The notes beneath the pieces were generated by a model. The model worked only from the letters and a program-made list of their open reading frames with translations, did no database searches and had not been told where the DNA came from. Below, piece by piece: positions 10,146 through 62,900 of a stretch of DNA of 64,000 bases; position 1 is the first letter of the stretch; each line of letters opens with the position of its first letter. The position numbers and the translations under genes are program-made. The DNA lies in NCBI RefSeq assembly GCF_041260155.1, contig NC_091937.1:6576626-6640625 (forward strand), in the 5' to 3' direction. The stretch comes from Ptychodera flava (taxonomy: Eukaryota).

Positions 10146-10362
10146 ATCAGATCACTTGGCTATCCTTCAACAGTGTCAGTTTGTTACATGTACATGTAGT
10201 GTTTATCATCTCATAGGTCAATGTACTAGATGTATCTCTTCAGTTTATATCAGTTTATACAGACTTAGTTATATAAAAACACAGCATAAAGGCAATTCTT
10301 TATAGTTTTAGACTTTATTCTGAGTAAAATTTTATCTGATAGGAGGTTATGCTTCTACTTAC

Positions 10363-11231
10363 TGGCTTGAAGTCAGTTTCTGGCGTACCATTGGTCAATT
10401 GTTGGTCATGTGACGTTATGACAGGTCCATTTGCCCCTGAGGATTTTCTGCTGGAGGTAGACATTGGTGATGTTCTCTGGGTGACCAATGGATCTCTCTG
10501 TAAAACCTTGGCACTTCCCCTATCCTCACTTTTTCCAGACGGTGGCCTCTCTGATGTTCGGCTCCTGTGATCACTTCCGGCATATTCCTTTAGATCTGGA
10601 TTAGAGCTGGGTCTCTCCCTTGACCCTGGCCTTTCCCGACTGCCTGGTCTTGGCACCCCGGCTGATCCAGGTCTTTGACTACTATGATGGGAAGAGCTGC
10701 GGGAACTGGAGGACACTGAACTTTTAGATTTATGCGACCCACGCTCAAACATTTGTTCCACATGTTCTTGGCTGGAGCGTCTACGTCCAGCGTTCATTTC
10801 AAAGAGCTGCGCGACTTCCTGGTCGCTAGCTGCATCCCCTCCATTCCGTCCTTGCCAACTCTCATGGATATTTCCCTGTCCTGAAGCTCTGTCATCAGCC
10901 GGTGGCGGCTCATCACCCCCTTCCCTGGATCCCTGACTGCCACGTCCTACCTGCTCATCAACTTCTACGTCTGACATTCTGTTTTGCCTCCTTCCTGACA
11001 AGTCAAACTCCTCAGCTAAACTAGTCTCTGTTTTCTCAAGTTGCTGTTTCAACAGTTTTTGATAGATTCCAGTCGCTTTCCAAGGCCTGTTTTCTGACAC
11101 CTCACTTTGTTCAATGTCTAGATCTGCAGAGTCACCATTGGGTACGCTCTCTGTTAAAACACTGGGCCGTAATATCGGCGTTGTTTCTGTGAACGAGTCT
11201 GTACTTACTCCAGTTCTTAGATTTTCAGTTT
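10363..11231 (-). CDS. Coiled-coil / Ser-rich protein gene, large Ser/Arg/Gly-rich exon (~289 codons). Encodes ...TENLRTGVSTDSFTETTPILRPSV...SRSSSHHSSQRPGSAGVPRPGSRERPGSRERPSSNPDLKE...TDFKP.
   Basis: Acceptor ttttttacag|AA, donor CCA|GTAAGTAG (perfect consensus). 869-bp open frame on the minus strand. Low-complexity Ser-rich content with SRERPG repeats. Phase-0 end joins the next exon in frame. Confidence 0.65.
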
Positions 11232-14200: not shown

Positions 14201-16599
14201 AACACTGGCATGGTGTTCTAAGCCCTCCCTCACTGATGCATGAAATGCATGTATCCATTTACAAGGCATGACACTGGGACATGCTCCAACACATTCTTCA
14301 CAATCTCAACATGTACACAGGTAGTATCAGGGGACAAAGTATGCTCTAAAACAAACAAAGAAACCAAATTAAAACCAATGCATACCATCAGGTGCCTCAC
14401 AAATATACCACACACATTAACCAACTCACTGCTCAAAAAATAGTACTATTACACTGGTATGAAATACTATTGGGAGAATAAACATTTGCATTTCAGCCTG
14501 CATAAAATTCACTACCTTGGCCATTTCCCTGACAAAAGATCAATTTACAACAATAGCACATGTATAAAGTCAATTTCCATACTGGAAGTCATTTCAATGC
14601 CCCAGACTTTTCCAACTTTGACTTTTTTTTCATATAGAAGGCAAATCATACCTCTTAATTCATCTTCTGGTTTGCGGATTGGCATAAACATTTCACCAAA
14701 GTCCTCCAAAATCTCCCACAGAATGATACAAATCCCCTCGCATCGGCCAAGCACGACCCCTGCTCTGTCTATTGGGCTTTAATTTCAAAGCAAGCCAAAA
14801 CTCATGCCGATCTATTTGCACAAGGTCATGTGACCAAACCAAACTGGTTGACACCTTATAGCTATGTTTGGGTGGTTGGCCTTTTGTCAAGTTTTTTCTT
14901 TGTTCAAAAAAAGAAATGGCAAATTGCCAAATTACTTGCACATTCAAACTTTAAAGTATAATTTCCTGAGTTTGTTGGCTTTTTGAAAAAGAATTAGGCT
15001 TTGCATCTTCTCTTTATTTTGAAGAAGAAATGTTGTTGTTTGATTTCAGACGAAGTGTAAAACTTTCATCAATTTGCCTTTTGTAGTCTAAGAGTTGTTA
15101 ATTTTTTGCTCTTTTAAATTTGCTTATTTTCAAATTTCACAACTCCGATTTTCAAGATTTACAAATTGTTTCATGTATAACATCCAAGCTTTTTCAAAAC
15201 AAACATTTAAAAATAAATCAAGAATAAACAAGTCTGAGGACAATTTTGACTAAAATAATCCACAAGCATGTCAAAATTAGGGCTGATAACTTGTTGCCCG
15301 GCAATGAGAGATGTAAGAAGAATTTCACCTTTTAGAAGTTCTCACCTTTGACATATCTGGATCAAGTAATTTGTTGGTGTTGTGTATTATATAGATTTCA
15401 TGCTCAGGTCTTGAAGAGTTACAAATTGGAATACTGTACCAGGCCAATTACCGTATAGTGTAGAGAATTTCGATAGCTGATAAAACTGACTTCAAAATGT
15501 TCATCACTTTAAACTGTTTCGGAGTTGCTCAGATATCAGATTCAAACATGCATCAAACCATAGTCCCTCCAACACTGTGGTCAAACCAATCTACTGTGCC
15601 TTCATTCTCTCTCAATTTGGAATAACCATTGTTATGCATCCAGGCCAGACAACTTCACAGGAATAATCAGGGGTGGACAACGTCCACTATGAAAACTTGC
15701 TGCAGCAAGATGATCTTGATCAACCAAACAATCGACAAGTTCAAAATTTGTAAGACCAAAGTTGTCATTCTGCTCCTTTGCTTCATTGATAATGCACAGT
15801 AAGTGAGGCTACCCACAATTCTCCATGATCTGTACACACGGAGATCACTCACTGAAATGAAGCAAATTTCTTCTGTACACAGAACAACTCAGTCCACATT
15901 TCAAAATTCTGGCAACATAGTTCTGATTATCATAATTTTCTGATTTCTCACTGTGAATAATGAGAAGATCAACCCTTTTCCGCGGAGGAGATAGCATTTT
16001 GTAATTTGTCGACATAGATTTTTGACAGCCATACACAATATTTTCAAGGAAACTAAGGGAATAAGTTGTATCTGTGTTGGCAAAAGAAAGGGTATTGATT
16101 TTTTTTAATGTTCGTAACAAAGGAAATTTGCATGTCTGACAGGTGGTATGATGAGACCATCTTAGTTGCTGATAACTTTATCTTGACAAGTGTGCAATTT
16201 TTAGCACCTCCAAACACCGACTTCTCATTCAATTTACTCTTGAATTTTAAACATAATCAATAATTTTGGAACATAGTTTTAAAAAATAATCCTGAACTTA
16301 AATTGTAAATTAAAAATTGTTAAGAAACTGATAAAATTGAAAAAGCCTTTAGCAAAAAATGTCTGAGTGAACAAATCAAGGGGAATTGTGGGTAGCCTCA
16401 CTTACTGTGTAATGGTTTAATCCTATTCTTTGCTTTCACGGTCATTCCATTTTACAAGAGAGCAGGAGGGGTCCATTTTGACTTTGAAGAAGTGATTTAG
16501 AAGGCCTCCTCAAGGCAAAGTATCTGGCATGACATGAATTTTTTATCAACTTTTGCATACAATGAATAGATAGAAGCTTCTTTTAGATCTAGGAATATA

Positions 16600-17532: not shown

Positions 17533-20150
17533 CAGGGATGCTCAGCGGAAAGTAGACGATGAGATTAAATGATACCTTACTCAATTACTAATTTACATCA
17601 GACACTTTATTTCTAAAATTACACTAGTACCTCACAATATTGCTTGCGAGCGGCAAGTTCTCAAAGACAAGAATAACAAATACCAGACCTAAATGATAAC
17701 AGTCGCTTGCCTGCTTCTCTGCCGACACGAGTGCCTTATCTCTTTCCACTGGTTTATTGCCGTAATCTTATACCACGATACTAATTACACAGCGACAAAA
17801 AGACAACTGTAGTTCTTGCTGAAGAAGTATAAAAGAGTATTTCTCGCGGGGAATCTAGCTCTGCCATAGCGGTGACGGTCTGTGACATTAGCAGTGACAC
17901 GTGTTTTGTCAATTTGGTACAACTTTTTGATGATAAAAATCTTTACTAAAGAGGCCTTTAGGTTACCAAAAATAAACACCATCGACGCGATTGTCGATGG
18001 CACCTAAACCTTGTAAGAGTGAATAGTATTTTTTATTTAGGAGGGTGATCTCAAATATATTCGTGAATGCATCTTCCAAAAGTGAAGTATATACGAAAGT
18101 GAAAGCAACAAATTTGTTCGAACTGGGTATTGTCAGTACTCCCTAACTAGCTTATATACAGTGCAGCTTACGCAGTACAGAGGTATGTAAGAGTGCCTTC
18201 AACAGCATACTCCGAGTTCAAAAACCGAGTCGGACTTGCGTACTCCGAGTAAAACTGCTTACTCGGACATGTATACTCCGAGTGCACTCGGAGTTGAATA
18301 CGCCGAGTTACACTTGCTTATAGAAAAACAATGCTGAAAAACAGAGGAAATATTCGATCTTGTGATAAAAATTTGCAAACAGTATATACAGTACATGTAC
18401 TTTCAGTCGCTCAGAGAAAAGAGTTGTTAACGCGATCTTTCTGATCTCTGATCTGTGTAAAATACCATCCTGTAGCCTACAACACGCTCAAGTCATTGTC
18501 GTTGTCGAGTGTAGCTACCTTCACGTAAATTATTAGTTTGTCTTGTCTTTTCGTTTCATTACCGGATCAGATCCTGATTTGATACATGAATTGAAATGGG
18601 CACAACAACGTTTCATGATCACCGCGATGCATCGCGGCGAATTACATGTATTAGAACACGGACGCCATTATCGAATGACCTGTCGACCTGTGACGTCATG
18701 GCCTTGGTTTGCTAGCGTTGTGAGGCCATGATAGACTTGCCCAAACATTTTAGGCATATTTATGTCTTGATAAAATAATTAAACTAATAATTTTTCAAAA
18801 TAAAATGAGCACAGTGCGCTCGTGTATAGTATGAACCCAGTGCGAGTGACCACTTGGTCGTAAATAATGACCTGACTTGACCTGTGATGTCATGCATTTA
18901 TTTTGCTAATGAAACTGTGCGATATCTAACTGAATAACTGGCTGGACTTGCCTGAAGTTTATTGGCTTTACTGTAAATGTTACGTCTAAGTCATCTTTCA
19001 AAAAACTTCGCTGCTGGCCGTGGCAGCAGCTTTCTTCTGAGGGTAAAATCTCGGTCGCTCTTTGTGGAGGGACCGTGGTTAAAATTGCGCAACAGATTAC
19101 AAGACATCGTGAAAATGAAATTCTTTTTTTTCAAAAGAGCAGATTTTCGACATATCGATCCGCGCTAGCCGTAAACTCCGTGAGTAATAAAATACCTTTT
19201 TTCGACAGATCGTTTCTTGACCGGTATGGCAAAATATGCATTTATAGGAACACGTATCGGCATATTCAAGTCCGAGTAGGCCATGTACTCGGAGTAGGCC
19301 TATACAAGTCCGAGTAGGCCATGTACTCGGAGTATACAAGTCCGAGTAAGCAGTTTTACTCGGAGTATGCAAGTCCGAGTACTCGGACTTGCAAGTCCGA
19401 CTCGGTTTTGGAACTCGGAGTGTATGGTTTGAGATACTCCTACAAATTAGTCACATGTAAAAACAACTTGCGTGCATGCCTGGCTAGCCTTTCAAAAAGT
19501 TTATTTTCTAGCTACGTATGTTGCAAAATTGGTTTTGATCATTTTGAGTGAAACAGCTTCTGAACCCTTGACTTGAATGCTAGGCGCTCTCTGATCTTTG
19601 ACCCAATCGGATCAGCATAATTTATAGATCTTTTTCGTCAGACACATTAGCAGAGCGTATTGTGATTTTGCAACAAAGTGTTTAGATTGATACTTTTAAT
19701 AGTTTGACGTTCAGAGGTCGTGAACTTGTTACAAAGTGTGTCCACTGTTACAGTATAGTAGTCATTTTGAAAAAAAAATCAATTTGTTTGAACTCGTGAC
19801 GACTGCTCAGTACTCAACATCGCGTCCGCGTCGGCCGGTCTACCCCGGCGATGACGTTCATTTCAGCAAGAACTACAGTTGTCTTTTTGTCGCTGTGTAA
19901 TTAGTATCGTGGTATAAGATTACGGCAATAACCAGTGGAAAGAGATAAGGCACTCATGTCGGCAGAGAAGCAGGCAAGCGACTGTTATCATTTAGGTCTG
20001 GTATTTGTTATTCTTGTCTTTGAGAACTTGCCGCTCGCAAGCAATATTGTGAGGTACTAGTGTACTTTTAGAAATAAAGTGTCTGATGTAAATTGGTAAT
20101 TGAGTAAGGTATCATTTATCTCATCGTCTACTTTCCGCTGAGCATCCCTG
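17533..20150. mobile_element. Non-autonomous Tc1/mariner-like DNA transposon (2618 bp) with ~290-bp terminal inverted repeats and a TA target-site duplication.
   Basis: Left terminus TA|CAGGGATGCTCAGCGGAAAGTAGACGATGAGATTAAATGATACC... at 17533. The right terminus is its reverse complement, ending ...CCGCTGAGCATCCCTG|TA at 20150. TIRs span 17533-~17826 and ~19858-20150. Internal sub-terminal inverted repeats rich in ACTCGGAGT/ACTCCGAGT (18180-18300 versus 19255-19450). No ORF above 90 codons, hence non-autonomous. Confidence 0.75.
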
Positions 20151-20289
20151 TAAAGCACCATGCATAACACAATGGCTTGTTCCACTGATTTTAGGCTTAC
20201 ACCCCATTTCCCAATGCAGAGATCCAACTTTTTCATACAAAACAAGGAGTACACCAAACTTTGATGATGACAGGGTTTTGGAATATACC

Positions 20290-45696: not shown

Positions 45697-45794
45697 CTAT
45701 AACATAAGATCATCATCTTCATCTGTGTTTGGCTTTGTCCTCCTTGGAAGTTCAGGGAGATCTTCCGCAAGTCCCCAGTTTTGCTGTCCAAAAG
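45697..45794 (-). CDS. ARL13B: ARL13B-like terminal coding exon. Encodes (S)FGQQNWGLAEDLPELPRRTKPNTDEDDDLML*, with TAG stop at 45697-45699.
   Basis: Acceptor ttcattgacag|CT in phase 1, matching the exon-8 donor. Short ORF closing with an in-frame stop. No protein-similarity support, so this is the weakest link of the model. Confidence 0.55.
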
Positions 45795-46230
45795 CTGTCA
45801 ATGAAACAAATAAAAGTCGTCAGTCTTTTTTGAAAATATGTCTATCTTCATATTATTTTTCATACAAATACTGACAAAACTCCAAGGAAACTTTTGAGAT
45901 GAATTAGCCAATGTTGCTGAGATTATTTTTAAGTAGCTCTGAGCAAGTTTAGAGACAACAATCAAATCAAAAACAAAATCATCAAATTTAGTTTCACAGA
46001 GATGATCATCATCCTATATTACTACCATTCCCTTTGTTGTCATGGCAAGTAGGAAAGACATCAAAAGTTGCACTACTTTTTTTTGGTAGCATTTTGGTAG
46101 TAAACTAGTATGACAATATGATAACCTAATACATCTTTCAATCGACACGGCGATTGGGCCAGAATGACAGTCAGATGATCATCATGTGACCACATGGGTT
46201 TGCCTATGATATCATATGATATACACTCAC

Positions 46231-46476
46231 AATTTGACTCCACTGGACTGCTGGATCTTGGTGTGTGTTTCTCCATGAGAGGCGCCAACCTGGGTGGACG
46301 AGAGGCTCTGACTTCAAAAATGTTCCTTTGCCCTGGAGCCTGTGCCCATGATGGAGCCATAATAGGTGCTTGAAGAGGTGGAGGATGGAACTCATCTTCA
46401 CCATCAAGTGACATTGGAGCCAATTTATTTTTCTTCTTGAGTTTCTTCTTCTTCTTCTTTTTCTTTTCACTTTCCT
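46231..46476 (-). CDS. ARL13B: ARL13B-like exon 8. Encodes (E)ESEKKKKKKKKLKKKKNKLAPMSLDGEDEFHPPPLQAPIMAPSWAQAPGQRNIFEVRASRPPRLAPLMEKHTPRSSSPVESN.
   Basis: Acceptor tctgatgcag|AG, donor AAATT|GTGAGT. In frame with exon 7. Lys-rich then Pro-rich composition, consistent with the Pro-rich ARL13B C-terminus. Alternative model: read through to a TAG at 46073 as a terminal exon. Confidence 0.65.
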
Positions 46477-46744
46477 CTGCATCAGAATAAAAAGACCTGT
46501 GTTACAATATATTGACAGATATAATAATTTTTGTGATGTGAAGTCGACACACAAAAATAATGACAGACACATACATACACATAGATTTCCTCTGTCACAC
46601 AGAGTAGATTGCAGATGGTACCTATTTGAATTTATTTCAAATTATTGTGACTTTTGCTTTGCTTTAATAGATTCTTTTCACACAATAATAGTTTTCCTTC
46701 GTTGTATCCTGTAGCCTTCACTAAATCAGTACAGCACTACGTGT

Positions 46745-46808
46745 CACTATCATCATTCATGTCAATTTCCCATCATCGTCATCATCACTGTCGTCATCAT
46801 CACTGTCG

Positions 46809-46845
<37 letters not shown>

Positions 46846-46940
46846 TATCACTGTCGTCATCATCATTGTTGTCATCATAATCTTACCTGCCACTTCCTTC
46901 CTCATCTTCACAATCATCAGGTCCTCATCATCATCATCAC
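46745..46940. repeat. (CAT)n / (CATCGT)n microsatellite directly abutting the exon-7 donor of the ARL13B-like gene.
   Basis: catcatcgtcatcatcactgtcgtcatcatcatcatcat... The exon-7 donor (GT at 46885-46886) lies within it. The ORF track spuriously reads it as poly-Met/Thr. Confidence 0.85.
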
Positions 46941-47541
46941 CACCACCGTATCGTGGCAACCGACTTTCCTCCTGGAACGAGGACTCCTTCGCATTCTTGG
47001 ATTTTGAGGAATAATACATTTCATCAGCGTCATCATCCTGATCTGAAGCCACATGAATAATACGTCTCCTGCCAGAATGCTTGGAATCTTCCACACTTGC
47101 ACTGTCCATTTCATAACTGTCACTGTCATCACGCCTTTGACTTCTGAAAAATGTTTCTTTTTTCCGTTCAAGTTCATGGTCATATTTTTGCCTGGAATAG
47201 TCTGATTCGTCAGACTTTTTGTTGTCCTCATCACTGTCATCATCCAAATAAAATCCATATCCCCCTGTTTTTTTAGTTCTAGATCTAGGTGTCAATTTGG
47301 GAGATTCGTACGATTGTTTATAGCCATCCTCATCATCATCACTGAATCTCTGTTTCCGTGGTGATTTCTTTTTCTTCATCCTTGGACTTTTGTGAGGCTT
47401 TTTGGTCACAATTTCTTCATCCTCCTCATCAGATGCATATGATTTGTGATTTTTCACTTTCATCTCATCTTCATCGGTATCTTCGGGGAGTTTCTCTTGC
47501 TTAGTGGGTTTCTTCTTTGGTTTTTTATTCTTGCTGTCAAA
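46887..47541 (-). CDS. ARL13B: ARL13B-like exon 7. Large K/D/E/S-rich low-complexity exon (~218 codons). Encodes FDSKNKKPKKKPTKQEK...SDEEDEE...SDDDEDG...DDDSDED...RYGGGDDDDEDLMIVKMRKEVA(G).
   Basis: Acceptor ttttgtttcag|TTT, donor GGCAG|GTAAGA. Uninterrupted 655-bp reading frame, joined in phase 0 to exon 6 and in phase 1 to exon 8. Alternating Lys-rich and acidic Ser/Asp/Glu clusters (CK2-type sites). No counterpart in human ARL13B as I recall it. Confidence 0.7.
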
Positions 47542-48049
47542 CTGAAACAAAACATTGGAATCTATTGAGTGAAGTACATGTCACACCAAGATTAAAACAA
47601 TACTCAGATTCAAATTGGTCTTCTCTGAAAGTGAATGTGGAAACGTCACAGAACTAAACACACTACATGTACATGATTTTCATGTTAGGAATTTGAAAGC
47701 ATAATTGAATTCTTGGTGTTAAGTGCTTGGTACAGTGTATTCTTCCTTTAACCTTTTCATCCTATGTCCCTGTAGATAGATTCCAGTCTACTAGCCAGTA
47801 CAGGGGAACAGTTGATTTGGGCTAACCCACAGTGGAGAAAGGGGTAAAATAAGTACATGAATTACAATGCAACAGTGAGTGCATGAAAAATACAGTATGT
47901 ATTATCATGGTCTGTCCATCACACCATGCATAATTAATATTGCATAGATGCCATTTTTTGTTTGTTTGGTGGTTCATTTCTTGATGGTACACTAGTATTT
48001 GCTTAGTATTTGAATGGATTGGGGGATAATTATTACAGATATAACTTAC

Positions 48050-48170
48050 TTTCATTTTTTCAACAGGTTTGAAAGGATTGTCACCAACATGGACATCATC
48101 ATCATCATCATCTTCACTTTCTTCTTTCTCAATTCCTTCTCTTTTCCTTCTTTCCTCTTCCTCCCTTTCT
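48050..48170 (-). CDS. ARL13B: ARL13B-like exon 6. Encodes (R)EREEEERRKREGIEKEESEDDDDDDVHVGDNPFKPVEKMK.
   Basis: Acceptor ttccttacag|AG, donor ATGAAA|GTAAGT. In frame with exons 5 and 7. The NPFKPV motif resembles human ARL13B NPFQPI. Acidic low-complexity content. Confidence 0.75.
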
Positions 48171-48870
48171 CTGTAAGGAAACAAATTCAAATTCTGTAGC
48201 TGAGAGTTGCCATGTCCATTGGTCACATTGGCTGCATTGTTTTACATAACCACCTCTGGTTGGATTTTCATATGAGGTTTCTGTTGAACACGATAGCACA
48301 CCTTACCAAAAATATTTTATTCGACACTCGACTGACAAAGCTCTCTCACAAGATCATGATGTACTCACTACCAACCAAATAAAGACGTAAATAAGGTTCC
48401 TTGCTGAATGGCAAAAATCTATGTTCCAGTCTCAGACTGAAATCTACAAACAGACTACAACTATGCATATTACAAAGATATTTCCTGTGTTTCAATTCAA
48501 ATTTTATGAACATAACCAACATAGTTTTGAAAAACTTTCGTAATGCAAATCTCTCACTTGATTAGCCAATTTTAAATGTAAATTACACAGATCTTCTTGT
48601 TTATGGCAATTAAAACTGAATATCTTCTATATCATTTACATCTATAATTTGGCACATTTTGAGACAATGTGAAACCGAGAATTATTATTGTATGTTAAGA
48701 TGAGTCAAACAGTACTGATTTCCATTGTCCAGATGAAAGTTTTTATATTATATTTTAAAAGATCACAGTATAGAATATTTCTAAAGATTAAAAATTTGGT
48801 GGCACAGTGAAAGGAGGGGGGGGGGGCCATTAAACACAAAAACAATTTCCATAGGTCTCCTTTTTCTAAC

Positions 48871-49073
48871 CTTTCTTCCCGGATTTTCCTGACCCTCTCC
48901 AATCTCTCTTTCTTTTCAATAGCCTCTAGTTCCCTTTGTTCCTGTGTTTCCTCTTCAACTCTCTTTCCCAGTTCATCCCATTCCTCACTGATAGTCATCA
49001 ACAGCCACTTGAATCCCGACTTGATTGACTTGTCCATCTTCTTGCCGATGCCGAGAGTCGCAGAACATGTCTC
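48871..49073 (-). CDS. ARL13B: ARL13B-like exon 5. Encodes [67 protein letters not shown](R).
   Basis: Acceptor aatttgtag|GAG, donor GAAAG|GTTAGA (weaker donor). Aligns to human [59 protein letters not shown] (the coiled-coil segment). Phase-consistent with exons 4 and 6. Confidence 0.85.
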
Positions 49074-49515
49074 CTACAAATTGATGTAAACAATGAGAAG
49101 AATTCTGTCAAGTTACCATATAATTATGAAGCCTTTTCTTTCCTAACAACAGCTAAGGTCTACCATATAAGTAGAATACCCACAGCATTTAAAAATTCTG
49201 CCAGATCAGAGGCATATTGCAGATGATTGGCAGCCAGGCAAAGTTAGGAGCTGATTAGTGGTGCATTTTTTTATAAGAAAAAGACAATTTTCATGGGAAA
49301 AAGCTGATTATGAATAAATGAATAGATATCAATCTGTCTGCTATGTAGACACAAATTGTACAAACTGAGTTTATCATATTGATTTTCAGTATAATGCCCC
49401 TGGCCCTGTCACTTCGATATATGTGCCTACAATGTCACTCTGGCTGTCTTTTACCCACTTGACACTACAGTGTTTGCTTCGTCTTTTCCATTTACTCTAC
49501 TGTTTCTTGGAATCT

Positions 49516-50234
49516 AAAGTATTGCATGACTTACCACTCTGCAAGGACTCTGACTAAAGTATTGCATGACTTACCACTCTGCAAGGACTCTGACTAAAGT
49601 ATTGCATGACTTACCACTCTGCAAGGACTCTGACTAAAGTATTGCATGACTTACCACTCTGCAAGGACTCTGACTAAAGTATTGCATGACTTACCACTCT
49701 GCAAGGACTCTGACTAAAGTATTGCATGATTACCACTCTGCAAGGACTCTGACTAAAGTATTGCATGACTTACCACTCTGCAAGGACTCTGACTAAAGTA
49801 TTGCATGACTTACCACTCTGCAAGGACTCTGACTAATGTATTGCATGACTTACCACTCTGCAAGGACTCTGACTAAAGTATTGCATGACTTACCACTCTG
49901 CAAGGACTCTGACTAAAGTATTGCATGACTTACCACTCTGCAAGGACTCTGACTAAAGTATTGCATGACTTACCACTCTGCAAGGACTCTGACTAAAGTA
50001 TTGCATGACTTACCACTCTGCAAGGACTCTGACTAAAGTATTGCATGACTTACCACTCTGCAAGGACTCTGACTAAAGTATTGCATGACTTACCACTCTG
50101 CAAGGACTCTGACTAAAGTATTGCATGACTTACCACTCTGCAAGGACTCTGACTAAAGTATTGCATGACTTACCACTCTGCAAGGACTCTGACTAAAGTA
50201 TTGCATGACTTACCACTCTGCAAGGACTCTGACT
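49516..50234. repeat. 40-bp minisatellite, ~18 tandem copies (taaagtattgcatgacttaccactctgcaaggactctgac).
   Basis: Near-identical 40-mers. One 39-bp variant (~49721) and one A>T variant (gactaatgta, ~49836). The 3'-most copy is continuous with ARL13B-like exon 4. On the minus strand every copy reads CAGAGTCCTTGCAGAGTG|GTAAGTCATGCAATACTTTA. Confidence 0.9.
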
Positions 50235-50319
50235 CTCGTTCACCATGTCTTCAAGATTCAGCTTCTCACAGATGTCAATTTCATCAAGAGCACCGTCTTC
50301 ATCTTGTTTGTTTGCAAGG
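50214..50319 (-). CDS. ARL13B: ARL13B-like exon 4. Encodes (V)LANKQDEDGALDEIDICEKLNLEDMVNESQSPCRV (NKQD G4 motif).
   Basis: Acceptor ttgtatacag|C, donor GAGTG|GTAAGTCATGC. NKQD is the G4 guanine-specificity motif. Aligns to human [38 protein letters not shown]. Phase-consistent. Confidence 0.88.
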
Positions 50320-53153
50320 CTGTATACAAACAAAACACCATGAATGGGAAATTAGTTTTGTGTACTTTAAACAACAACACACAAGAAGGGCTGCATATCA
50401 TGTTGGTAGTATCAGTGTTTTTCATAGCTTGTAAAAACAGTGGGACAGGCAATTTACATAACAATGCACAATATGCATATTCTTTTGATGTGAAAAATGT
50501 ATTCTAGATCACTAGAAATACAAAGTGGTAGCCCACTGCTCAAAATCCCCTTAATAATTGTGGATAGTTTTGAACAGGTGCAGAAAAATGCTATCTAGAA
50601 TGAAACTGTTTGAATATATAGAGATAATTCTTGATGAGTGTTCAGGCACTGTTGGGATGAGATAGGGAGACATCTCCTAGATGGTGATTGATTTTTTACT
50701 TGCCCTTGACACAGTTCCAGGCTGTCTCTAGAGGGCGCACATGCACTGGCTGATAAGACTTCTTATTAACTTACAAATTACATATGATAGTGAACTTAAT
50801 TTTCAATAAGACCTGAACCAAAGAAATTATGTTAAGTATACCGGTATTTAGTACAATGAAATCAGTACATTAACAGATCACATAATGTTTTTATCATAAT
50901 TGGGCAGAAATTTGATAATACTAGTCGTAAATCATCAATAGGCAGAATTTACAGCAAAATCATAGTGAAATCACAAAATATATGCTGCAATATTACAGTG
51001 TTCAATGGTCAGCTGTAGTTTGTTATATGTCATCGTTACAGAGAAAGAAACCTCCAGTCTAAAATAAATAGTAAATCTCTGCCATGAGATATGATTGATA
51101 ATGTGTAAAATTTCTCTCTCTGTGTTGAAATTAAACCCACACACGCTGGGTGATATCGTGAAATTGTACACCGCTCAGAATTAAAGTACCCTTGACTCTT
51201 TGACTGCTGCTTTTATGAATAATTCATCAAACGACTACTTCCTGATAGTTCAATGGAAATGACATAAACAGATGTGCCAAGTCCTGAAGGCATGAACGCA
51301 GAGCTTCCAACAAATGAAATAGCTCCATGTTCAAATCAATTGCTTACAATGACATTACGGAAACACTAGTCATCTGGAACGTGATCTTTCTTACCATAGA
51401 TTGGAAAGGGGTATTCTAATCCTACATGAAGGGCTGAGTATTCGGTACAACAACTTTTCCTGTGAATGCCATGTGTCTCTATGAATTATTTCATCAAATT
51501 CCACAGGAAAATATGAATAATATTCCTACGTATATTATATCACTGAAGATTCTCTAATCCTCTAGTGCAGAATTACATTTTATCAATAACTTCTTGAAGC
51601 CACTGAATTTGATTTCAGTGAGTTTTTTCAGGTTCATATTGCTGTCAGCAACAGATATTTCATTCTTTCAAATTTACCACAAAATATTGGCAATTTGCAC
51701 CTACCATGTATTTCACCAAATTTTTCATATTTTTCATCCTTAAAAATTTAACACATAATATTCTGCAATCTGTATCTTTATTTACATTTGTACAATTACA
51801 GTGTATATTTAGATTTGATTTATTGAAATGGGTTCAAAGTATTAGACAGAGCAGCTATGAAATGATATACCGGTACATGCAATATGAGTCAGACAGGGAT
51901 AGTATTTCATTTTTGCCAAAATCAAGATTTCTCTTCAACTGATTGAGTTACTAGTATTGCTGTCTTCATGATTTACAACTACCGCAGTATGAATCGAACG
52001 TCCGAACTGATAATTCGGCCTTTTTTTCATATCACTTGTCATGCAAAGAAACATTACAATTGAAACTTTAATAGGCAGCCTTGTGATAATTATATATTAT
52101 GTCTCATATGAGTTTTCTGAATTTCAGTGAAATCTGACGGAATCACATTTCCTGATACGTATACTGGTACATATGAACCATCAGAACTTGTTTTTAATGA
52201 AGTCTTCAGGGAACTGAGTAGCTGCACTCAGATAGTGAATGTAACATGAACCAATAAATGTCCCTGGTTTTAACACTTGAGCTAGTTGCTATTTCAATGT
52301 TTTTCTTTCAGGTGGAATGCACCGTGGGGATATTTGGACTCTCAACCTGTCAAGATTCTTTTCTGGTCCCACCACTTGTGGAGGCACATTTTGAAGTTCA
52401 TGAAGTGACTAAAGCTCAGCTTACTGGGTTGCTTTTGTGAAAATCATAAATTTATTTTTCCTCATTAGAGTTAGGACAGGGATGGTGGCCATTTTGAATT
52501 TAAAGTATAAGTAAAATTGGGTAATCTGTAGTACAAAATTTTGCATGATCACAACTGATTTTTATTCATGATTTCAAAAGGGAATAATTTAAACATTCCT
52601 ATAGACAGTTTGAACAAAAGTTTATATCTTTTAATTTCAAGGTGCGTATTACCTTAAGCTCCCTCATGGTTTGTGTTTGTTATAAAACTTCACTGACCAA
52701 ACTATTTTGTGCACTGTAAATCTTCCCTCGCATTTAAAATTTGCTGCAGCTTTTTAAAATAGTAATGGTTGAAAACACACACTTGGACTTGAACTAGAAC
52801 ACGAAAGAGATTGTACTGTATGCATGAAATGGAGTTGATAACGGTAGAAACAGTAAAATACTCAATGATTAGTTTATACAATTGAATTGATTGAATGATT
52901 ATTATAAAGCAATGTAATATTTGCTCATGACTAGCGTTACCTGCATCTGGATTTATTTTGCTAGATACCACCTTGTAGGATAAAAGTTTGTACCATACTC
53001 TATCCTCTCTTTTCAGAACCAAAGTTTGGTATAACCTCATTGTATTCTATAGCATAGCTGTACCACTTTGTAGAAAGAGAGAGGCAAAAGTATTGGAACT
53101 GATCAGATCATCTGGAATGTGATATTCTGATACTGATAAATGCATATACTTAC

Positions 53154-53403
53154 ACCAACAATGGTTTTCCTTGTACCCGTTTGTCTCCCAGCACAGCCTT
53201 CAGAGTTTCCCTTGACTCTTCCAGTCTCTCTTGATCAGCGGCATCAATGACAAATACAACCCCATGGCTTTCAGAGTAGTAGTTCCGCCAGATTCCTCGG
53301 ATCTTCTTGCCACCTCCGAGGTCATAGACCGTAATTTGAAACTTGTCAACCTTAAAGTCTACACTTGAGAAACCTACAGTTGGGGCAACACTTTCAAGAG
53401 GCT
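53154..53403 (-). CDS. ARL13B: ARL13B-like exon 3 (GTPase core). Encodes EPLESVAPTVGFSSVDFKVDKFQITVYDLGGGKKIRGIWRNYYSESHGVVFVIDAADQERLEESRETLKAVLGDKRVQGKPLLV.
   Basis: Acceptor tgtttcag|AG, donor TTGGT|GTAAGT. Contains the ARL13-specific DLGGG switch-II motif (human FDLGGGIRIRGIWKNYY) and APTVGF. 250 bp, phase-consistent. Confidence 0.9.
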
Positions 53404-56400
53404 CTGAAACAGGAAGAGAATAAATGTATAAACTATATGCTTTCTCAGTTTACTTACACACTTTACTTTGAACACCAAACAACTACCAGTGATAATTTTT
53501 CCCCTTTCTCTCCCTTGCTTTTGGTTTGTTCCTATTATTTCAATAGTGTAGACAGACCCATGAATAAAGAAATGGGTTGGCTAAAATTCCATCATAGTGA
53601 ACCTGTGAGATTTTGGGGGCTTTTTCGTGGGTATAAACATTTCAAGGAACCTTTTCATCATCACGTTATGGTTGGTAAAACACTTAGTGTCCAATGGGAA
53701 GTATGGACCTGTACATGTACAGCAGGAAAAACCAATAGGGATGAAATAATGGTACATGAGCATGCAGGCTTGCTGTTCTGCGCTAGGGTATTTATTTCAA
53801 TTGCCTTAATTGTTATACATGTATGGCTCCATTAAGTAATGACATGTCCACAGGTGACAACACGGATATTGCATTTTACTTGTAGTCAGCAAATGGCGCT
53901 GAACTGGATAACAAATTCTCCATGCAATAAATGATAAATTGTGGCTCAAATTACTCCACTGAATATACTGCAATTTGTCATGTTGGGGTTTTCAGATTTG
54001 TGCGGCTCGGTTAAATTTTCGGTTTGTGAAAAATTTTCTCTTGCTCTTGATTAAGTCTACTGGTTCCAAGTGGTTGGTATGATAATTAGCTGGGAGACAT
54101 CTCCTAGTAATCCACATATAGGTATGTGTTCTATCCATCATGTCTGCCATGTTCACAATTATCATCCGTTATGAAGATAATGAGTAATTATTAGCCATTG
54201 GTTGAGTTCCACTTGGTACAGATGATTGTATGCAATCACATAATGACATTACGTTAATGTCAATAAGCATAAAAAGGCCTACCAGTATTTACAATGTAAA
54301 CACTTACTATTCCCATAATACATTCCCAAACAAGCTATTCGAAATGGGAGACCATAATATTAACAATTCAGACATTAATTTCTATATTTTTGATGTATTT
54401 ATTTAAATGCACTATGAAAAACCTCACAATTTTTTATTGTGAATGCTAAATAATGAGAATTTTTATTTTTTTTACGAATATTTGCATCATCACAATTTTT
54501 CTTTAAACAATGCGGCAGACAAATAAACAATAAAATCGCAATTACTGCAAAAAACCTGCAAAACAGACTTTAAATCTGGAAATAAAATATTATTTTATCC
54601 TTATTTGCTATTTTATTACAGAAATTAAGACATGTAGACAAATTCTGACTAGACTTCTTTTGCAGAGAGACATGAAGAAAATGTTTTGTGAATTGATACC
54701 TTGTGCTTGGACTTTCTACCAGCAGGCAGCCATATTGAATTTCAGATTAATGATGGTTTTACTGCGCCCATTGAGAAGCACACAAATTTCATTCATTAAA
54801 ACGGACTCTGAATTCCTTTTTGGGAAGTTTTGAATTCTCAGTCTTAAAACTTTTCACTTTTGATATTTGGTAAGTAATTAGTAACCTGTCTGTCAACTCA
54901 AGTGTTTATTTGATGTTTTGACTGTGTAGTTGACAACATCCCCTGAGCAAGCAATGATTTGAGACTGAAATTCAAGGAAAAGGCAAGTGACACGGTGTAA
55001 GTTCAACACCACCACAGTCTAGCATTACAGTAGTCTAGTACCGTATTTCCTGTCCTGTTTTCGTATACAAAACTATTGATGTATCAAGCAAGGGATAGAT
55101 TACTAGACTATGGTACAGGTAGCTGACCAATGATAATAGACATAGCAATAATTTGGAATTTCATCATCACCGATATTGTCCTTTTAACATATAAACAAAA
55201 TTAGAAAAAAAAACATGAGTAGAATAATTTCTACAATGGATTATCCAGAAAAAGACAAGAAATAACAAAATTTGCAAATTATCACAATAGCAATGACTGT
55301 CACTAGAACCAACTTTCAACATAAGACAAAGGGTGATGTGAAGTTTGAATTCCCACTATTTTCAGAACAGCAATTATAAAATTTTTGATGTCCAGGATTT
55401 GTTGCTATGGTGACATTGCCTATATTATGGCCTTTTGGGTTTTTAGAAATTATAAATATGGTATTCTCAAAAGTGCTAATTACCTTCATGTACAATTACA
55501 AGTTCCTATCATATTTTTGTTTTGACAAAGAAAATCACATTCACCACACCAACCCCCAACAACCAAATGTACATGTCACATTTTTCAGTTTAAGCATAAC
55601 AAATAAGAGATCACCAATGGATTAATCTCAACTTTATACCATAGAAAGATGTGGCTATAACACACCTGTAAGTATTTTACAAACTTAAAGTTAGCAGATC
55701 TATTCATATTAAGATGGTCCACCTACAGCTCTTGAATATGTTAGCAGACTCAATGAATACATGGCACAGACGGCATAGATAGTAGCAATTCAATGTACAC
55801 ACTGAGTTTCCTTTGCAAGTAGAAGAAGTGTTTATTAGCGGTATCACCATGCTACATAATTCCATGCCAATTAATCATTTCAACAGGTTTAAAAAGAGAA
55901 TATCCTTCTATGAAAAGCAATATGATTTCAGTTCCTTGAATTTTTTTCCCATTTGATAATTAAAGCATCCATTCATAATGAACATAGTAAAAAAAAAATT
56001 ATCCTGGTAATTTTGAAGTGATTCATTGCCCTTTGCTGGCCATGCATTCCTGGTCTGTACTTCTGATGGTACTACATGTAAACCGTACTCAGATAAGAAC
56101 TGTTTTATTTAATTTGTAAGTCACTATTCTTAAATTCTATGCCTCTGATACAAAGGTGAACTGAAATTGTAATTGCAGGATCAAATAAATCAAACAAAGG
56201 GACTTTAGTTTGTTTTTAAACACTGCGATTAAACATTAATTTACAGGATATGTTCACACAAAATACATTATTTACTCATCGCAAAACTTTTTTGACAAAC
56301 AGAAAGCTTATCAAATACGTTATTATTCAAGAGACATTTAATTTTTGTTACAATGTCAAGTAAACGTGTTGAAAAAGTTGTACATTCATATGCAGACTGA

Positions 56401-57807
56401 TATCAGACATGTAGTTTTTACAGATTACAACTTTTGCTGTGTTATAACACAGGAGACACTGAGGTTGTACACATGCTTTATCAAAGACACATGTTTGATA
56501 AATTGTGACAGAACACCTGACACCTTGTTGATCTGTGATAAAAAGGGCACAGGTTCATATGCTCAAGGTGACGTCAATTCAACAATTTAGAAATTTATCT
56601 GGATAGATTAACACTTATCAGTTTAGTGCATACATATTATTTGCAATAGCTACTACAAGTTGTCAATATGTAATGTGGCTGCATAAGTGTCGAACCCTGA
56701 TTGAAATTAAATGAATGTTTCATTCCTACAATTGAAATTGAATGAACGTTTGATTCGTACGAGATCTGCAACATCAAATGATGTCGGTATATGGTCTAGC
56801 AGTACACCTTTGCAATGTCCATGCATTCAGCAGTACAAAAGTTTGATACAATCCAGTGATTAAGATTACCATCAGATGTTACATCTGATGTAATTGTAAC
56901 AAGTTTCCTACTTACATGTATTATCCACTAATGGTCTAACAGTCTAACTAACAAAAAAACATGCATGAATTGCTATTAGCAAAAATATAACACAGTTAAT
57001 GGTGAATGTGTTGATAAACACTTCTTCTGTATTTTTTGGCCGATCTTTTATTTCTTCAAGACACGCACTGCACCCTATTCATTTAAAACTGTATGGTATA
57101 CATGTATCTCTAAACTTTATGACAGAGAGAAGTTTGACATCATATTTGACTTCAAAAGCATAGTTTAGACACAAAGTTACAAAATATTAGAGACCTAATA
57201 TTTGGCACATTGCATCCACGATGAATGTAAGAATTACTGGCAAGAGGATGTCATATCATTATTACTGTAGATTGAGTGGGTAGCCTTTTTCATGCAAGGA
57301 GATAGATGGGACTTCACTGAATGGAAGTTGGTTTTCAAATTAAAAGTTCAATGCCCTAAAGTAATGGATCTGGTGGTTCCAGGGAGTACACTAGAGAACT
57401 TTGGCCGGGTTGCCATGATCCAAATATCAAATTGACAAATTATTTCATGTTTATTGTTCATAGCCTGATCATAGTCCCTCCCTTGGATGGGAGTGACTAG
57501 TGCCTATGGACTGAGTCACAATGTTTGTCTGAAAACTTCCTTTGGACTAGAATGAAAAGTGAAATCTGCATTGACATTGGAGAATGACAAACAAGTTGCA
57601 TGAAATGATACTTGATGAAAAAACAAAGTAATCTGTCTAATCTTGAGCATTATCTTTCAAACACCCTATTGGTTTGCTGCTTTATAAGGCTTTTGAGCAA
57701 AATGATAGCATTGTGGTATTGAACACTGAACAGGAAATATCATTGTGTTATGCCAGATGGGGAGTTGATTGAGATGGGCAAGTCTTATCGCGGTCACTTC
57801 AAAAAAG

Positions 57808-58750
57808 TGGTCTTACATAATGCACAGTCGCTCAAGAGTTATTCAGCTCTTGGACTAGTCGCCCCATAGACGAGTATACAGAAGAGAGAAATACCTCAAG
57901 TCTGGAAACAGAATGGCTATAAAAACCACGCCATGTCACATTCCGTGTCCGATTTCACTGTGAAAATTAGCAAGTTCAACTATCATGCAACGCGTCGATC
58001 GTTCCCTACCATTCTAAAAAATCATACCTGATACTATATCTGATTCAAAAACGCTCGTTTCGTGTGATTTTCGGCCGAATTCGACGGACAACTCGCCAAA
58101 ACCTGGGGGTGAGCAACATTCCGGTCACCTCTTGGGTACCTCCACTTTACTGACGTTTGCGCAGCCTACCCATGAGGGATGACTGGAATGTTGCTCACGC
58201 TTATGTTTTGGCCAGGTGTCTCTTGAACTCGGCCGAAAATCACAGGAAATGAGCATTTTGTAAGCAGATGAAGTATCACGTATGAATTTTTCGTGTGATT
58301 TTTCGGCCGAGTTCAGAAGACACGTCGCCAAAACATAAGGCATGAACAACCTTCCAGTCACCCCTCATGGGTACGCGGCGCTAACGTCAGTAAAGTGGAG
58401 GTGCCCAACGTCCACTGTGAGGTGCCCGGAATGTTGCTCACGCTTATGTTTTAGCGACGTGTCCGTCGAATTCGGCCGAAAATCACACGAAACGAGCGTT
58501 TGTGAAGCAAATCAAGTACCAGGTATGAATTTTGAGAATGATAGGGAACGGTCGACGGTTACATGATAGATGAACTTGCTACTTTTCACGGTAAAATCGA
58601 ACATCGAAGTTGACATGGTGGCAAAATCCCTATACGAAATAGCCATTCTGTTTCCAGACTTGAGGTATTTCTCGCTTCTGTATACTCGTCTATGGGGCGA
58701 CTAGTCCCAGAGCTGAATAACTCTCGAGCGACTGTACATAATGGAAGAAT
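57808..58750. mobile_element. Foldback-type element: ~940-bp near-perfect nested palindrome in ARL13B-like intron 2.
   Basis: The outer arm at 57808-57918 is the reverse complement of 58641-58750. The inner arm at 57960-58110 is the reverse complement of 58380-58600. The centre (58120-58380) carries four alternating-orientation copies of cgtgtgattttcggccga(a/g)ttc...cgccaaaac...gagcaacattcc. Symmetry centre ~58265. Confidence 0.75.
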
Positions 58751-59141
58751 TTTTATCAGTGGCTGGATAATGGTGAGCAGTCAATATTGGTATAATAAAT
58801 TAAGGTAAATATCACATCTCAGCGGGTAGTGCAGAAATGGTGTTGACAAAGTCCCCTGGTCAGTGTCACTTTCAATTTGAGAAAAGCATGACACGCATGA
58901 GATGAAAATGTCCAATCTAAATATCCACAATTATACTGTGTCACAAATATCATCATGTGGTCTATATCATCCAGTCAGAAAAATCACCACAATTTCAAGT
59001 GTTTTGTCGCAGTGACTTATTGCTAGCTCATGGTATTTTGAAAGTTCAAATCACACTGTCTAAACGAGACTACAGTACAGTCTCTGATTTTTTACAAAAG
59101 TGGCCATCATTTTCAAATTTGTCTTATTATCTGCAGCTTAC

Positions 59142-59212
59142 CTCCTTTGACCCCCTTGATGGCTGTAGTTTTGCCAGCATTATCAAGACCAACCAAGCAT
59201 AGTGTCACTTTC
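59142..59212 (-). CDS. ARL13B: ARL13B-like exon 2. Encodes (R)KVTLCLVGLDNAGKTTAIKGVKG (P-loop).
   Basis: Acceptor ttctccag|G, donor GGAG|GTAAGC. Translation contains the G1/P-loop motif GLDNAGKT, as in ARL13B (VTLLMVGLDNAGKTAT). Phase-consistent with exons 1 and 3. Confidence 0.88.
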
Positions 59213-59302
59213 CTGGAGAAAAATTACATGCAGTGGTTAATGCACATTGTTTCACATCAACAGAAACGTTGAGTCTTTTAAAACATATCCACATAGCTAT
59301 GC

Positions 59303-59932
59303 TGCAAAATTGTAGCGCTATACGGTGAGGCGGTCGGTGATTTTTGGTTTTTGCGACTTCGCTCACCAGTAGCGCTACAAGGCCGATGGCCCTGGGGAGT
59401 ATCATATAAGCGCGTCGTATTCGACCAGGCGTTTTGATGTGGAATGCAACATATTTACTGCATTTGGTCGTACCGATTTATCACTACTGAAGACTAAACA
59501 GTATACTGCACTAACTTTGTCATTTATGGGGTTTGGAATTTGTTCAAACACGACGATCGCGTTCTGAAAACATTGAGCGTGGGGCGTCGGTGTTTGTGGG
59601 AGCCGCCATTACCGGAAGTTGGTAATGACGGCTCCCAGAAATGTTTCGGAACGCGATCGTCGTGTTTGAACAAATTCCAAACCCCATAAATGACAAAGTT
59701 AGTGCAGTATACTGTTTAGTCTTCAGTAGTGATAAATCGGTACGACCAAATGCAGTAAATATGTTGCATTCCACATCAAAACGCCTGGTCGAATACGACG
59801 CGCTTATATGATACTCCCCAGGGCCATCGGCCTTGTAGCGCTACTGGTGAGCGAAGTCGCAAAAACCAAAAATCACCGACCGCCTCACCGTAGCGCTACA
59901 ATTTTGCAGCTATCCACATAGCTATGCAGAGA
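59303..59932. mobile_element. Large palindrome / foldback element (~275-bp arms, ~80-bp centre) in ARL13B-like intron 1, flanked by a 15-bp direct repeat.
   Basis: ctgcaaaattgtagcgctatacggtgaggcggtcgg... at 59303 is mirrored at ...ccgaccgcctcaccgtagcgctacaattttgcag, ending 59932. The centre holds its own small hairpin gagccgccattaccggaagttggtaatgacggctc. Flanks: atccacatagctatg occurs at 59288-59302 and 59918-59932. Confidence 0.8.
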
Positions 59933-60297
59933 CTATGCAGAGACTATGCACAGAAGTTTAAAATTGACCCATGAAAAGCTGTAATTTTCCACCGTGATTT
60001 TAATAAGGTAGCTTTCAGATTTGCAAGAATGCAATGGAAAACTTCAAAGGACATCAGCTTCATCTATTATCAGAAATAGAAACGACAGCCAGACACTGAG
60101 CTTCTGTTTGACATCACCAGAACAGACCTTGGCCTTGGTGAACCCGCTGTGAAAAAGAAACTTAATTTGGGAAGAATTGAAGCCACATCACATAAAGTAA
60201 TAACTTTTCTGGTACATTGTAACTTTTTGGCAGCAATGAGTCTGGTATGTATTTTCATACTACTGACTGTAGATGTAGTAAAATGGGAATAACTTAC

Positions 60298-60356
60298 CTT
60301 GGAGGCACTCGCCTTTCTTTGATCCAAACGAAACAGTTCCCCATCAGGCTAAACAT
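60298..60356 (-). CDS. ARL13B: ARL13B-like exon 1 (start codon at 60356). Encodes MFSLMGNCFVWIKERRVPP, then donor CCAAG|GTAAGT.
   Basis: Minus-strand ATG followed by a peptide matching the vertebrate ARL13B N-terminus ([21 protein letters not shown]) from memory, including the conserved Cys8. Consensus GTAAGT donor. Lies at the edge of a CpG island. Ends in phase 2 and joins exon 2 in frame. Confidence 0.8.
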
Positions 60357-61200: not shown

Positions 61201-62594
61201 AGCTGCAGTTGTCTGTCCCATGATCCCTAAAACTTGAAACTAATAGTGGATAAACATTGACAAATTTATTAAAATAGGGGGTGTTGCGTATTTTATAGTT
61301 AGGCCTAGTAGGCTATTGGTTGATCATAAAAGAACGACGTAATGAATTGTTGGTATATGGGGCAAATTAGGCGGAAATGGTTAAATCGAACTTGTTGCAG
61401 ATGGCATATTTGGCATATTGTTGTTGTTGTTGTTTTGTGGATAAACCATTAAATAACCACTTTCGATAAGCAATTAGGCCTATGCTTCGAAATTTTAAAC
61501 TTATGCGCTGAGTTGCTATAAATAATACAATATTTACACTACTCAAGTTTTTTTTTATCAGACGGTACACGTTTCTTTCATCAGAAGTTTTTAAATTGGT
61601 GATATCAATCCGACTTTGAAGAATGGCTAGGTCACTGGACCATACTTGACTACCAACATCAAGACATCTTCGTATTAAAAATAGTGAATCATCATCATCC
61701 AGTCTGCATACCCCACGCGATGCCAAAACCAAAACTTGACAGAACGTCGTTAATAACTTTGTTATGCAAAGTTACATGTAATCTTTCTAAAAGCAGAGTG
61801 TTTCCAAAGACTGTCTACCAAATCCTATATAGTAGCTCGAGGTAAAGGGTATTAGGGTGGGACGGTTTTGCCGTCCGACCAAAATAGCCTACTCAGGCAA
61901 AACCTCGAGCTACTGTACTGCAGCTACCAAATCCCGAGCCACTCACGTAGGGCAAAATGGTCACCTACCCTCGGGCACATAGTCCCATGATTAGGCTATA
62001 ATCTATTTTGGTTTTTTTCCCCTTAATATGTTGCCTATGATACATTTTTTCGGAAATATTGTGGTCAGTGTTTGATCGCCCTGAACCCCCTGAAAAATAA
62101 CAATAATTTGGAAAAAATATCCCTGCCGATCTACCTACCCTATTTTTGAAAACCATGTTATCGGAACAGCAGAATCTATTTATTTACTTATTTTTTGCCT
62201 ACAATGAGAGTATAGAGAAGACGATAAATGATTACACAGTTAGCGGGCTTTTAAAAACGCCATCAATCGACAAAGTTCCGAAAGTTATAAATGCAGCGCC
62301 CCCACACTTCAGAATGTCGTTCGTTGTTCATTCATTGAAATCGAGGCTACCTAATGTTTGGGTTTTGCTAATGAGGCCATCTTGAAAATCGGAGGATTGT
62401 GCTGTGTAGATAAGCCGCGTACCCTTTGGAATATCTGCTATCATCTGCGTCATTCCACAACCAAATTCGTCGAAAACAGCGGTGATACATCGTGGAATAA
62501 TAGTCACACCATCGGATTTTGTTTTTGTTTGGTTAGAGTGGGAACTATTTGGACATTTAGCCGTGTGAAACTTGCAGGCTTTCACAGTCCAAAA

Positions 62595-62900
62595 ATGGCC
62601 TGTGGTGCAACGTTAAAACGGACTCTAGATTTTGATCCTTTACATAGTCCTTCGCCGTCACCGAAAAGACGAAGATGTGTGCCTCTTATACCGCCAACAA
62701 CACCACAGACAAAGGCGCATCAGTTAGAACCGTCACCGTTTGGCCACGTTTCACCAAAGTTAACGCCAGGTAAGACCGGAAGAAGACAAAGACGCTGCAA
62801 AAACAGGTCGAACATTGCGAGTCAAGTGGAGCATAATTTAAATGGCGTCGTTTGCAAGTTTGAGCCTGTTCGAAAGCTCATTGTTTTATCACGATTTTGA
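62595..62900 (+). CDS. Candidate small basic protein ORF (101 aa). Encodes [101 protein letters not shown].
   Basis: ATG with aaaaATGg context ~1.4 kb beyond the CpG island, on the strand opposite ARL13B-like. SP/KRRR-rich (NLS-like). A possible GT donor at ~62770 (CGCCAG|GTAAGACC) means it may instead be a first coding exon. No family recognised. Confidence 0.3.

Follow-up and report, generated by a model that had tools for sequence, protein, structure and literature searches.

A gene with nine coding exons lies on the minus strand of the window, i.e., the 64,000 nucleotides of the Ptychodera flava genome analyzed here, and its intron 4 opens with a minisatellite of 18 units that reiterate the end of exon 4 together with the adjoining splice donor (Table 1). 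Five exons were first located by a six-frame search with a human ARL13B sequence as query. Splice sites were placed by eye, and the resulting exon 4-8 model was then used as protein query, which matched the ADP-ribosylation factor-like protein 13B of P. flava (RefSeq XP_070567727.1) along its full length at 100% identity. When the exact N-terminal 230 residues served as query, the protein search gave only matches of ~60% identity, the named ones all being vertebrate, and missed the P. flava protein. A second, C-terminal query did recover it; absence from the matches of the 230-residue search is weak evidence. The encoded protein contains a Pfam Arf domain (E=3e-43) and is about 60% identical to vertebrate ARL13B. 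In combination with intron positions matching those of fish, these sequence comparisons assign the host gene as the ARL13B orthologue. The gene call, the exon number and the exon 4 limits of the preliminary description of this DNA, made from the letters only, agree with the exact map to XP_070567727.1.

Table 1. Position of ARL13B, its exon 4/intron 4 boundary and the minisatellite with its reiterated donors (window coordinates).
Feature	Position	Strand	Basis
Ptychodera flava ARL13B, nine coding exons	45697-60356	-	exons mapped exactly to XP_070567727.1; last exon found separately
ARL13B coding exons 1-3	60356-60298, 59212-59142, 53403-53154	-	exact translation to XP_070567727.1
ARL13B coding exons 4-6	50319-50214, 49073-48871, 48170-48050	-	exact translation to XP_070567727.1
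ARL13B coding exons 7-9	47541-46887, 46476-46231, 45794-45697	-	7-8 by exact translation; 9 found separately
Exon 4: 106 nt, encodes (V)LANKQDEDGALDEIDICEKLNLEDMVNESQSPCRV, phase 0 end	50214-50319	-	exact map to XP_070567727.1; same exon in fish, Glandiceps, Saccoglossus
Intron 4: 1140 nt	49074-50213	-	exon map
Exon 5, acceptor exon for donor 1	48871-49073	-	exact map to XP_070567727.1
Minisatellite: 18 head-to-tail units, 40 bp each (one 39 bp)	49514-50234	-	Tandem Repeats Finder (TRF), unit-by-unit listing, pattern search vs shuffles
Unit 10 substitution, sole one in array: T>A on minus strand	49837	-	unit listing
Unit 13, 39 nt: one G deleted, donor +5 G destroyed, GTAAGT to GTAATC	49715-49753	-	unit listing
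Authentic donor 1, GTG/GTAAGT, cleavage between 50214 and 50213	50208-50216	-	exact protein map; XP_070567727.1 reads ...SPCRV-ETCSA...
17 reiterated donors (pseudo-sites), region	49529-50176	-	unit listing
Pseudo-site GT starts	50173, 50133, 50093, 50053, 50013, 49973, 49933, 49893, 49853	-	unit listing
Further pseudo-site GT starts	49813, 49773, 49733 (degraded, GTAATC), 49694, 49654, 49614, 49574, 49534	-	unit listing
In-frame TAG in unit 1, six codons beyond donor 1 (...CRV VSHAIL*)	50193-50195	-	translation

The boundary at which the minisatellite begins is shared by four species. In P. flava, exon 4 ends with ...SPCRV and exon 5 opens with ETCSA... at 49073. The boundaries of exons 1-5 are identical between P. 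flava and fish ARL13B, and exon 4 of the mudskipper Periophthalmus comprises the same 35 codons, ending with ...CLCQI/gtaagt followed by EPCSA. Within the hemichordates, exon 4 ends with ...TGCAGAGTG/GTAAGT in Glandiceps talaboti and with ...TGCAGAGTG/GTGAGT in Saccoglossus kowalevskii. Judged from these alignments, the intron position at 50214 is ancestral, and with the exact protein match and the conservation in four species the first monomer of the array spans a genuine exon-intron boundary. The array occupies the first 700 nt of intron 4 (61%); the unique remainder extends over 49074-49513 and runs into an acceptor end TTTGTAG. Without the 17 extra units, the intron would measure 461 nt.

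TRF reported a single array with a period of 40, 18.0 copies, 99% matches and a score of 1428, far above that of any other repeat in the window. Its period falls into the size range of minisatellites (units of about 10-100 bp). On the minus strand, the unit consists of GTCAGAGTCCTTGCAGAGTG, the last 20 nt of exon 4, followed by GTAAGTCATGCAATACTTTA, 20 nt of intron composed of GTAAGT and 14 further bases. The earlier account of the 40-bp unit needs correction in its composition, having assigned 19 nt to the exon (quoted as a string of 18 nt) and 16 nt to the intron after GTAAGT. Unit 1 covers 50233-50194, its exonic half being the last 20 nt of exon 4 (50233-50214), and contains the exon-intron boundary between 50214 and 50213. 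A search with the 40-mer allowing up to 3 mismatches gave 17 matches compared with 0 in 100 shuffles, the copy outside these matches being the 39-nt unit 13. All 40-mer matches were located inside the array and none elsewhere in the window; a dispersed repeat or transposon as its source was therefore rejected within the 64 kb. Sixteen of 18 units are identical. Unique sequence adjoins the array on either side, so its borders are clean, and the outermost bases, A at 50234 and G at 49514, also fit the unit and form a microhomology of 2 nt at the duplication borders. TRF, the unit listing and the protein match bear out the earlier reading of an in-register tandem duplication of the exon 4 end plus donor within ARL13B, and the 99% matches its conclusion that amplification was recent or that the array is homogenized.

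The exon end itself (50214-50240, minus strand) shows short direct repeats, with AGAGTC occurring twice in tandem and CAGAGT twice at a distance of 11 nt. These are specific to P. flava, because Glandiceps and Saccoglossus have different codons at this place, and they might have favored the first slippage event.

As a consequence of the unit composition, the splice donor is reiterated along with the exon end. Seventeen of 18 copies are intact GTG/GTAAGT sites and one is degraded to GTAATC; the earlier count of 18 consensus donors was correct for the units and too high by one for the sites, unit 13 being the exception. Beyond donor 1, the array hosts 16 copies of GTGGTAAGT and one GTGGTAATC at 40-nt spacing. 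GTG/GTAAGT agrees with the consensus CAG/GTAAGT at seven contiguous positions (-1 to +6), available for U1 snRNA pairing, and by consensus matches the array donor equals or exceeds most other ARL13B donors. Among the nearest pseudo-sites (units 2-12), no silencing substitution is found, a point against their being silent.

The coding consequence of using any of these sites is uniform. Read-through of donor 1 continues with GTA AGT CAT GCA ATA CTT TAG, so that the use of donors 2-18 or intron retention would yield a product ending ...SPCRVVSHAIL; translations from all internal donors first stop at residue index 41. The preliminary description had pointed to the frame shift caused by each 40-nt extension, which holds, and had missed the main effect, since the extensions of 3, 6, 9 or more units in steps of three that keep the frame also include the same TAG. 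Internal donors cannot give a functional protein because of this stop in unit 1, and on the predicted translations donor 1 is the only donor yielding the conserved, functional protein. RefSeq XP_070567727.1 requires donor 1 and is the one isoform named; a product ending in ...SPCRVVSHAIL had no exact match in the protein collection searched. Annotation, protein conservation and the human precedents discussed below are the grounds on which the use of donor 1 is proposed.

Two special roles of the reiterated boundary were considered and rejected. A recursive splice site (YYYNCAG/GTAAGT, generating a zero-length exon) does not match the unit, in which 4 nt separate the end of the acceptor-like CCTTGCAG from the GT (CAG-AGTG-GTAAGT). 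A structured RNA masking the downstream donors was dismissed as well: exon 4 together with four units showed no more stable fold than shuffled sequences (z=+1.17, with 179 of 200 shuffles folding as well).

Comparison with the orthologous intron, which the preliminary description had proposed as a check, revealed a lineage-restricted element. Repeat search of the ARL13B loci of Glandiceps and Saccoglossus detected no tandem repeat at the exon 4/intron 4 junction and a single donor in each species. Their introns measure about 923 nt and about 397 nt, respectively, a range that includes the P. flava intron without its extra units. Identity between units is 99% in the P. flava array versus 59-97% in most other arrays of the hemichordate ARL13B loci. 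Absence from the junction in two other hemichordates together with this high identity characterizes the array as derived and recent; on the sequences compared, it is young and so far found only in the Ptychodera lineage. A conserved “poison” site, being an element kept in orthologous introns, does not describe an array missing from both Glandiceps and Saccoglossus.

Minisatellites as such are frequent in all three hemichordate ARL13B loci. The Saccoglossus locus, mostly in its introns, contains long ones at 4246-4575, 6327-6753, 15605-16083 and 20076-20257 (locus sequence L004), with 16-bp units in 21-27 copies, 25-bp units in 19 copies and 34-bp units in 5 copies. With several long arrays in one gene region, minisatellites are commonplace in hemichordate genes. 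A second junction-spanning repeat was found in Glandiceps ARL13B (49 bp x 3.1, 94% match, L003 10964-11114), its unit combining 10 nt from the 3' end of the penultimate coding exon (GTAGATAGCT) with a GTAAGT donor and 33 nt of intron. It provides three in-register donors, the first of which is needed for the annotated protein (...AVDS-SFGATNWGL...).

Further repeats and open reading frames were recorded in the P. flava window. A CAT/ATG-rich repeat with 15-bp and 3-bp periods (46771-46878) begins 8 nt past the donor of exon 7 (GT at 46886), which it excludes, and on the minus strand reads as poly-Met or poly-Asp by frame. The tandem repeat at 5313-6160, with periods of 150 bp and 301 bp, 2.4-5.3 copies and 78-82% identity, is older and more diverged than the ARL13B array. 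Overlapping tandem repeats of 18-38 bp at 19259-19400 are built on GTCCGAGTA and TACTCGGAC, mutual reverse complements, and this cluster may represent the end of a transposon or a repeat able to form hairpins. An ORF at 62358-62900 (plus strand), containing ...SPKRRRC, is oriented divergently to ARL13B (ATG at 60356, minus strand), with the GC content rising to 0.40-0.44 in between; we take its product to resemble the N-terminus of akirin. The ORF at 10315-11250 (minus strand) is a frame of 311 aa with a high content of Ser, Arg and Pro and probably represents a large exon of a different gene. Pfam search of both ORFs gave no match.

Minisatellites spanning an exon-intron boundary have been described in human genes since the 1990s, so that the novelty implied by the preliminary description is unjustified. 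Borensztajn et al. 2006 (PMC1557585) name F7, IFI6, CBS, LMNB2 and PDGFA. Intron 7 of F7 contains a 37-bp unit in 5-9 polymorphic copies, of which only the most upstream site is used (PMC1557585). According to the same paper, IFI6 (6-16) carries 25 pseudo-sites in intron 2 and uses the authentic donor plus the first two of them, CBS has a 31-bp VNTR of 15-20 repeats in intron 13 and uses two pseudo-sites besides the authentic donor, and LMNB2 (100 bp, 10-15 copies) and PDGFA intron 4 (81 bp, 16-18 copies) use the authentic site only. In a series of 50 F7 minigenes, the pseudo-sites were functional, working after the upstream ones had been mutated, and perfect-consensus pseudo-sites competed; deletion of repeats left the splicing pattern unchanged (PMC1557585). 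A different rule emerged from globin and adenovirus substrates with duplicated strong sites, for which an intron-proximal preference was found with a switch at about 30-45 nt (Hodson et al. 2012, PMC3413131).

By sequence, the P. flava array agrees with every structural feature of the class represented by F7 intron 7. In both, the first monomer spans the boundary and is followed by identical, in-register copies of the donor, the units are of similar length (37 vs 40 bp), and the upstream donor gives the functional mRNA, as the annotation predicts for P. flava. The two differ in copy number (5-9 in F7, 18 in P. flava), in the exonic share of the unit (only 4 nt vs 20 nt) and in the site, which is weak in F7 (UGG/gugggu) and strong in P. 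flava (GTG/GTAAGT). Moreover, donor use and polymorphism have been shown for F7, whereas the P. flava array is known from its sequence. With IFI6 (Turri et al. 1995, as cited in PMC1557585) it shares many reiterated donors following the authentic one, described there as “multiple splice donor sites”; the first two pseudo-sites are used constitutively in IFI6, whereas such use in P. flava would lead to a premature stop. CBS, LMNB2 and PDGFA, also cited in PMC1557585, likewise carry junction-reiterating repeats in 10-20 copies, differing in unit length and in host, all being mammalian. The array in P. flava ARL13B is the first such case pointed to in a hemichordate. The substrates of Hodson et al. 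(PMC3413131) resemble it in presenting identical strong tandem 5' splice sites to one acceptor, several U1 snRNPs binding at once. However, they contain two sites and splice intron-proximally, opposite to what a functional ARL13B needs. The 40-nt spacing of P. flava lies within the 30-45 nt threshold separating the upstream “scanning” rule from the intron-proximal rule.

Taken together, we favor, with a probability of roughly 0.7, a young minisatellite of the F7 intron 7 VNTR architecture, with its first monomer spanning the exon 4/intron 4 boundary of ARL13B and the upstream donor in use. It would have originated when a 40-bp segment, with 20 nt each from exon and intron and the 2-nt microhomology at its borders, was duplicated in tandem, and may have expanded to 18 copies by replication slippage or unequal exchange. 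Productive mRNA would derive from the most upstream donor (50214/50213), as the human precedents and the annotation suggest, and the 17 downstream copies would be pseudo-sites, largely silent. Copies 2 and 3 are the likeliest candidates for leaky donors, if there are any, and transcripts from internal donors would end at the TAG and then undergo nonsense-mediated decay. That donor 1 dominates splicing is considered probable and not stronger than that, because of the 40-nt spacing, the sites being stronger than those of F7, and the competition by perfect-consensus pseudo-sites in F7 minigenes. Use of the internal donors as alternative donors, as suggested earlier, is plausible in principle because the reiterated sites of F7 work once the upstream ones are mutated. 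Copy number of the array is probably variable. Such an element would presumably have no evolved function: the array is most likely a neutral or mildly costly slippage product rather than a U1 sponge or a regulatory device. Across a genome, boundary overlap should come about regularly by chance: a random 40-bp seed is estimated to cover one of the gene's 8 donor 9-mers fully with a probability of roughly 8 x 32 / 14660 = 1.7%, and with ~1.7% per seed and minisatellites being common in hemichordate introns, many junction-spanning arrays per genome are expected.

A functional role of the array would take the form of a dosage device, in which either regulated use of internal donors diverts transcripts to degradation via premature stops, or a U1 platform or sponge alters the definition of exon 4, with the copy number tuning ARL13B. 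All 17 pseudo-sites lead to a premature stop and 16 of them are intact and strong, as such a device would need, and two pseudo-sites each are used constitutively in IFI6 and CBS (PMC1557585). The junction VNTR of human CBS is moreover reportedly associated with reduced enzyme activity, to go by the title of Lievers 2001 among the references of that paper. Nevertheless, we regard this explanation as unlikely: neither of the other two hemichordates compared has the array in the orthologous intron, the near-perfect unit identity points to an origin so recent that selection had little time to act, and RefSeq names a single protein isoform. The F7 deletion series likewise revealed no regulatory element in the repeats (PMC1557585), and the U1-binding sponge or splicing-regulatory platform proposed in the preliminary description found no support among our computations, which covered the distribution of the array in the two hemichordates and RNA folding, the latter being unremarkable (z=+1.17). 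Slightly less likely still is a proximity rule, by which splicing would favor the most acceptor-proximal donor (GT at 49534) or several downstream donors in mixture, making the allele an ARL13B hypomorph or null, heterozygous in the sequenced animal. Two identical strong 5' splice sites at least 45 nt apart are indeed spliced almost wholly intron-proximally (PMC3413131), the donors of the array are strong, and the published P. flava assembly is collapsed to one haplotype of a single male (PMC11175523). Yet exon 4 would then measure 785 nt instead of 106, all nine exons otherwise keep an intact reading frame, the annotation joins donor 1 to exon 5, and in the junction minisatellites known from nature, spaced at 37-100 bp, it is the upstream donor that is used (PMC1557585).

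Least likely, in our view, is an error of assembly or polishing that would affect either the whole array or its copy number and two variant positions. The published chromosome-level P. flava assembly was built from sperm of one male at 60x PacBio coverage using MARVEL, haplotig purging and Pilon polishing, and its gene models made use of RNA-seq and Iso-seq (PMC11175523). If the window derives from this assembly, the copy number and the two variant positions represent one assembly and one individual. The noisy PacBio reads were assembled by MARVEL and polished with short reads (PMC11175523), a procedure unreliable inside identical repeats, and independent P. flava sequence was found neither in the protein cluster, which has a single member, nor in a metagenome scan with a 30-mer across the unit-to-unit junction (0 matches). 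Against this, the 721-bp array is far shorter than the long reads at 60x, which would span it together with unique flanks (PMC11175523), its borders are clean with unique sequence on both sides, and comparable arrays occur in independently assembled relatives. Given that long reads readily cross 721 bp, the array itself is considered real, with less certainty attaching to its exact number of copies and to the variants in units 10 and 13.

There is a slim chance that the locus represents a natural competition among 18 donor sites in a non-vertebrate deuterostome which, if the copy number varies and donors leak, would act as a heritable copy-number dial on ciliary GTPase dosage. Were this true, the junction repeat in Glandiceps ARL13B would hint at a repeated origin of such dials in hemichordates. 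If the preferred reading of a young, F7-like minisatellite with the upstream donor in use is right, the array is an ordinary by-product of minisatellite turnover, and the only need of annotation is to flag the 17 cryptic donors of intron 4. The locus is also a practical warning for software that predicts genes or aligns reads, because the junction can be placed at any of 18 identical positions. Its value as a model would be modest, offering more and stronger reiterated donors than human F7 in a host far from mammals, and the locus could show whether “most upstream donor wins” holds outside vertebrates and for near-consensus sites.
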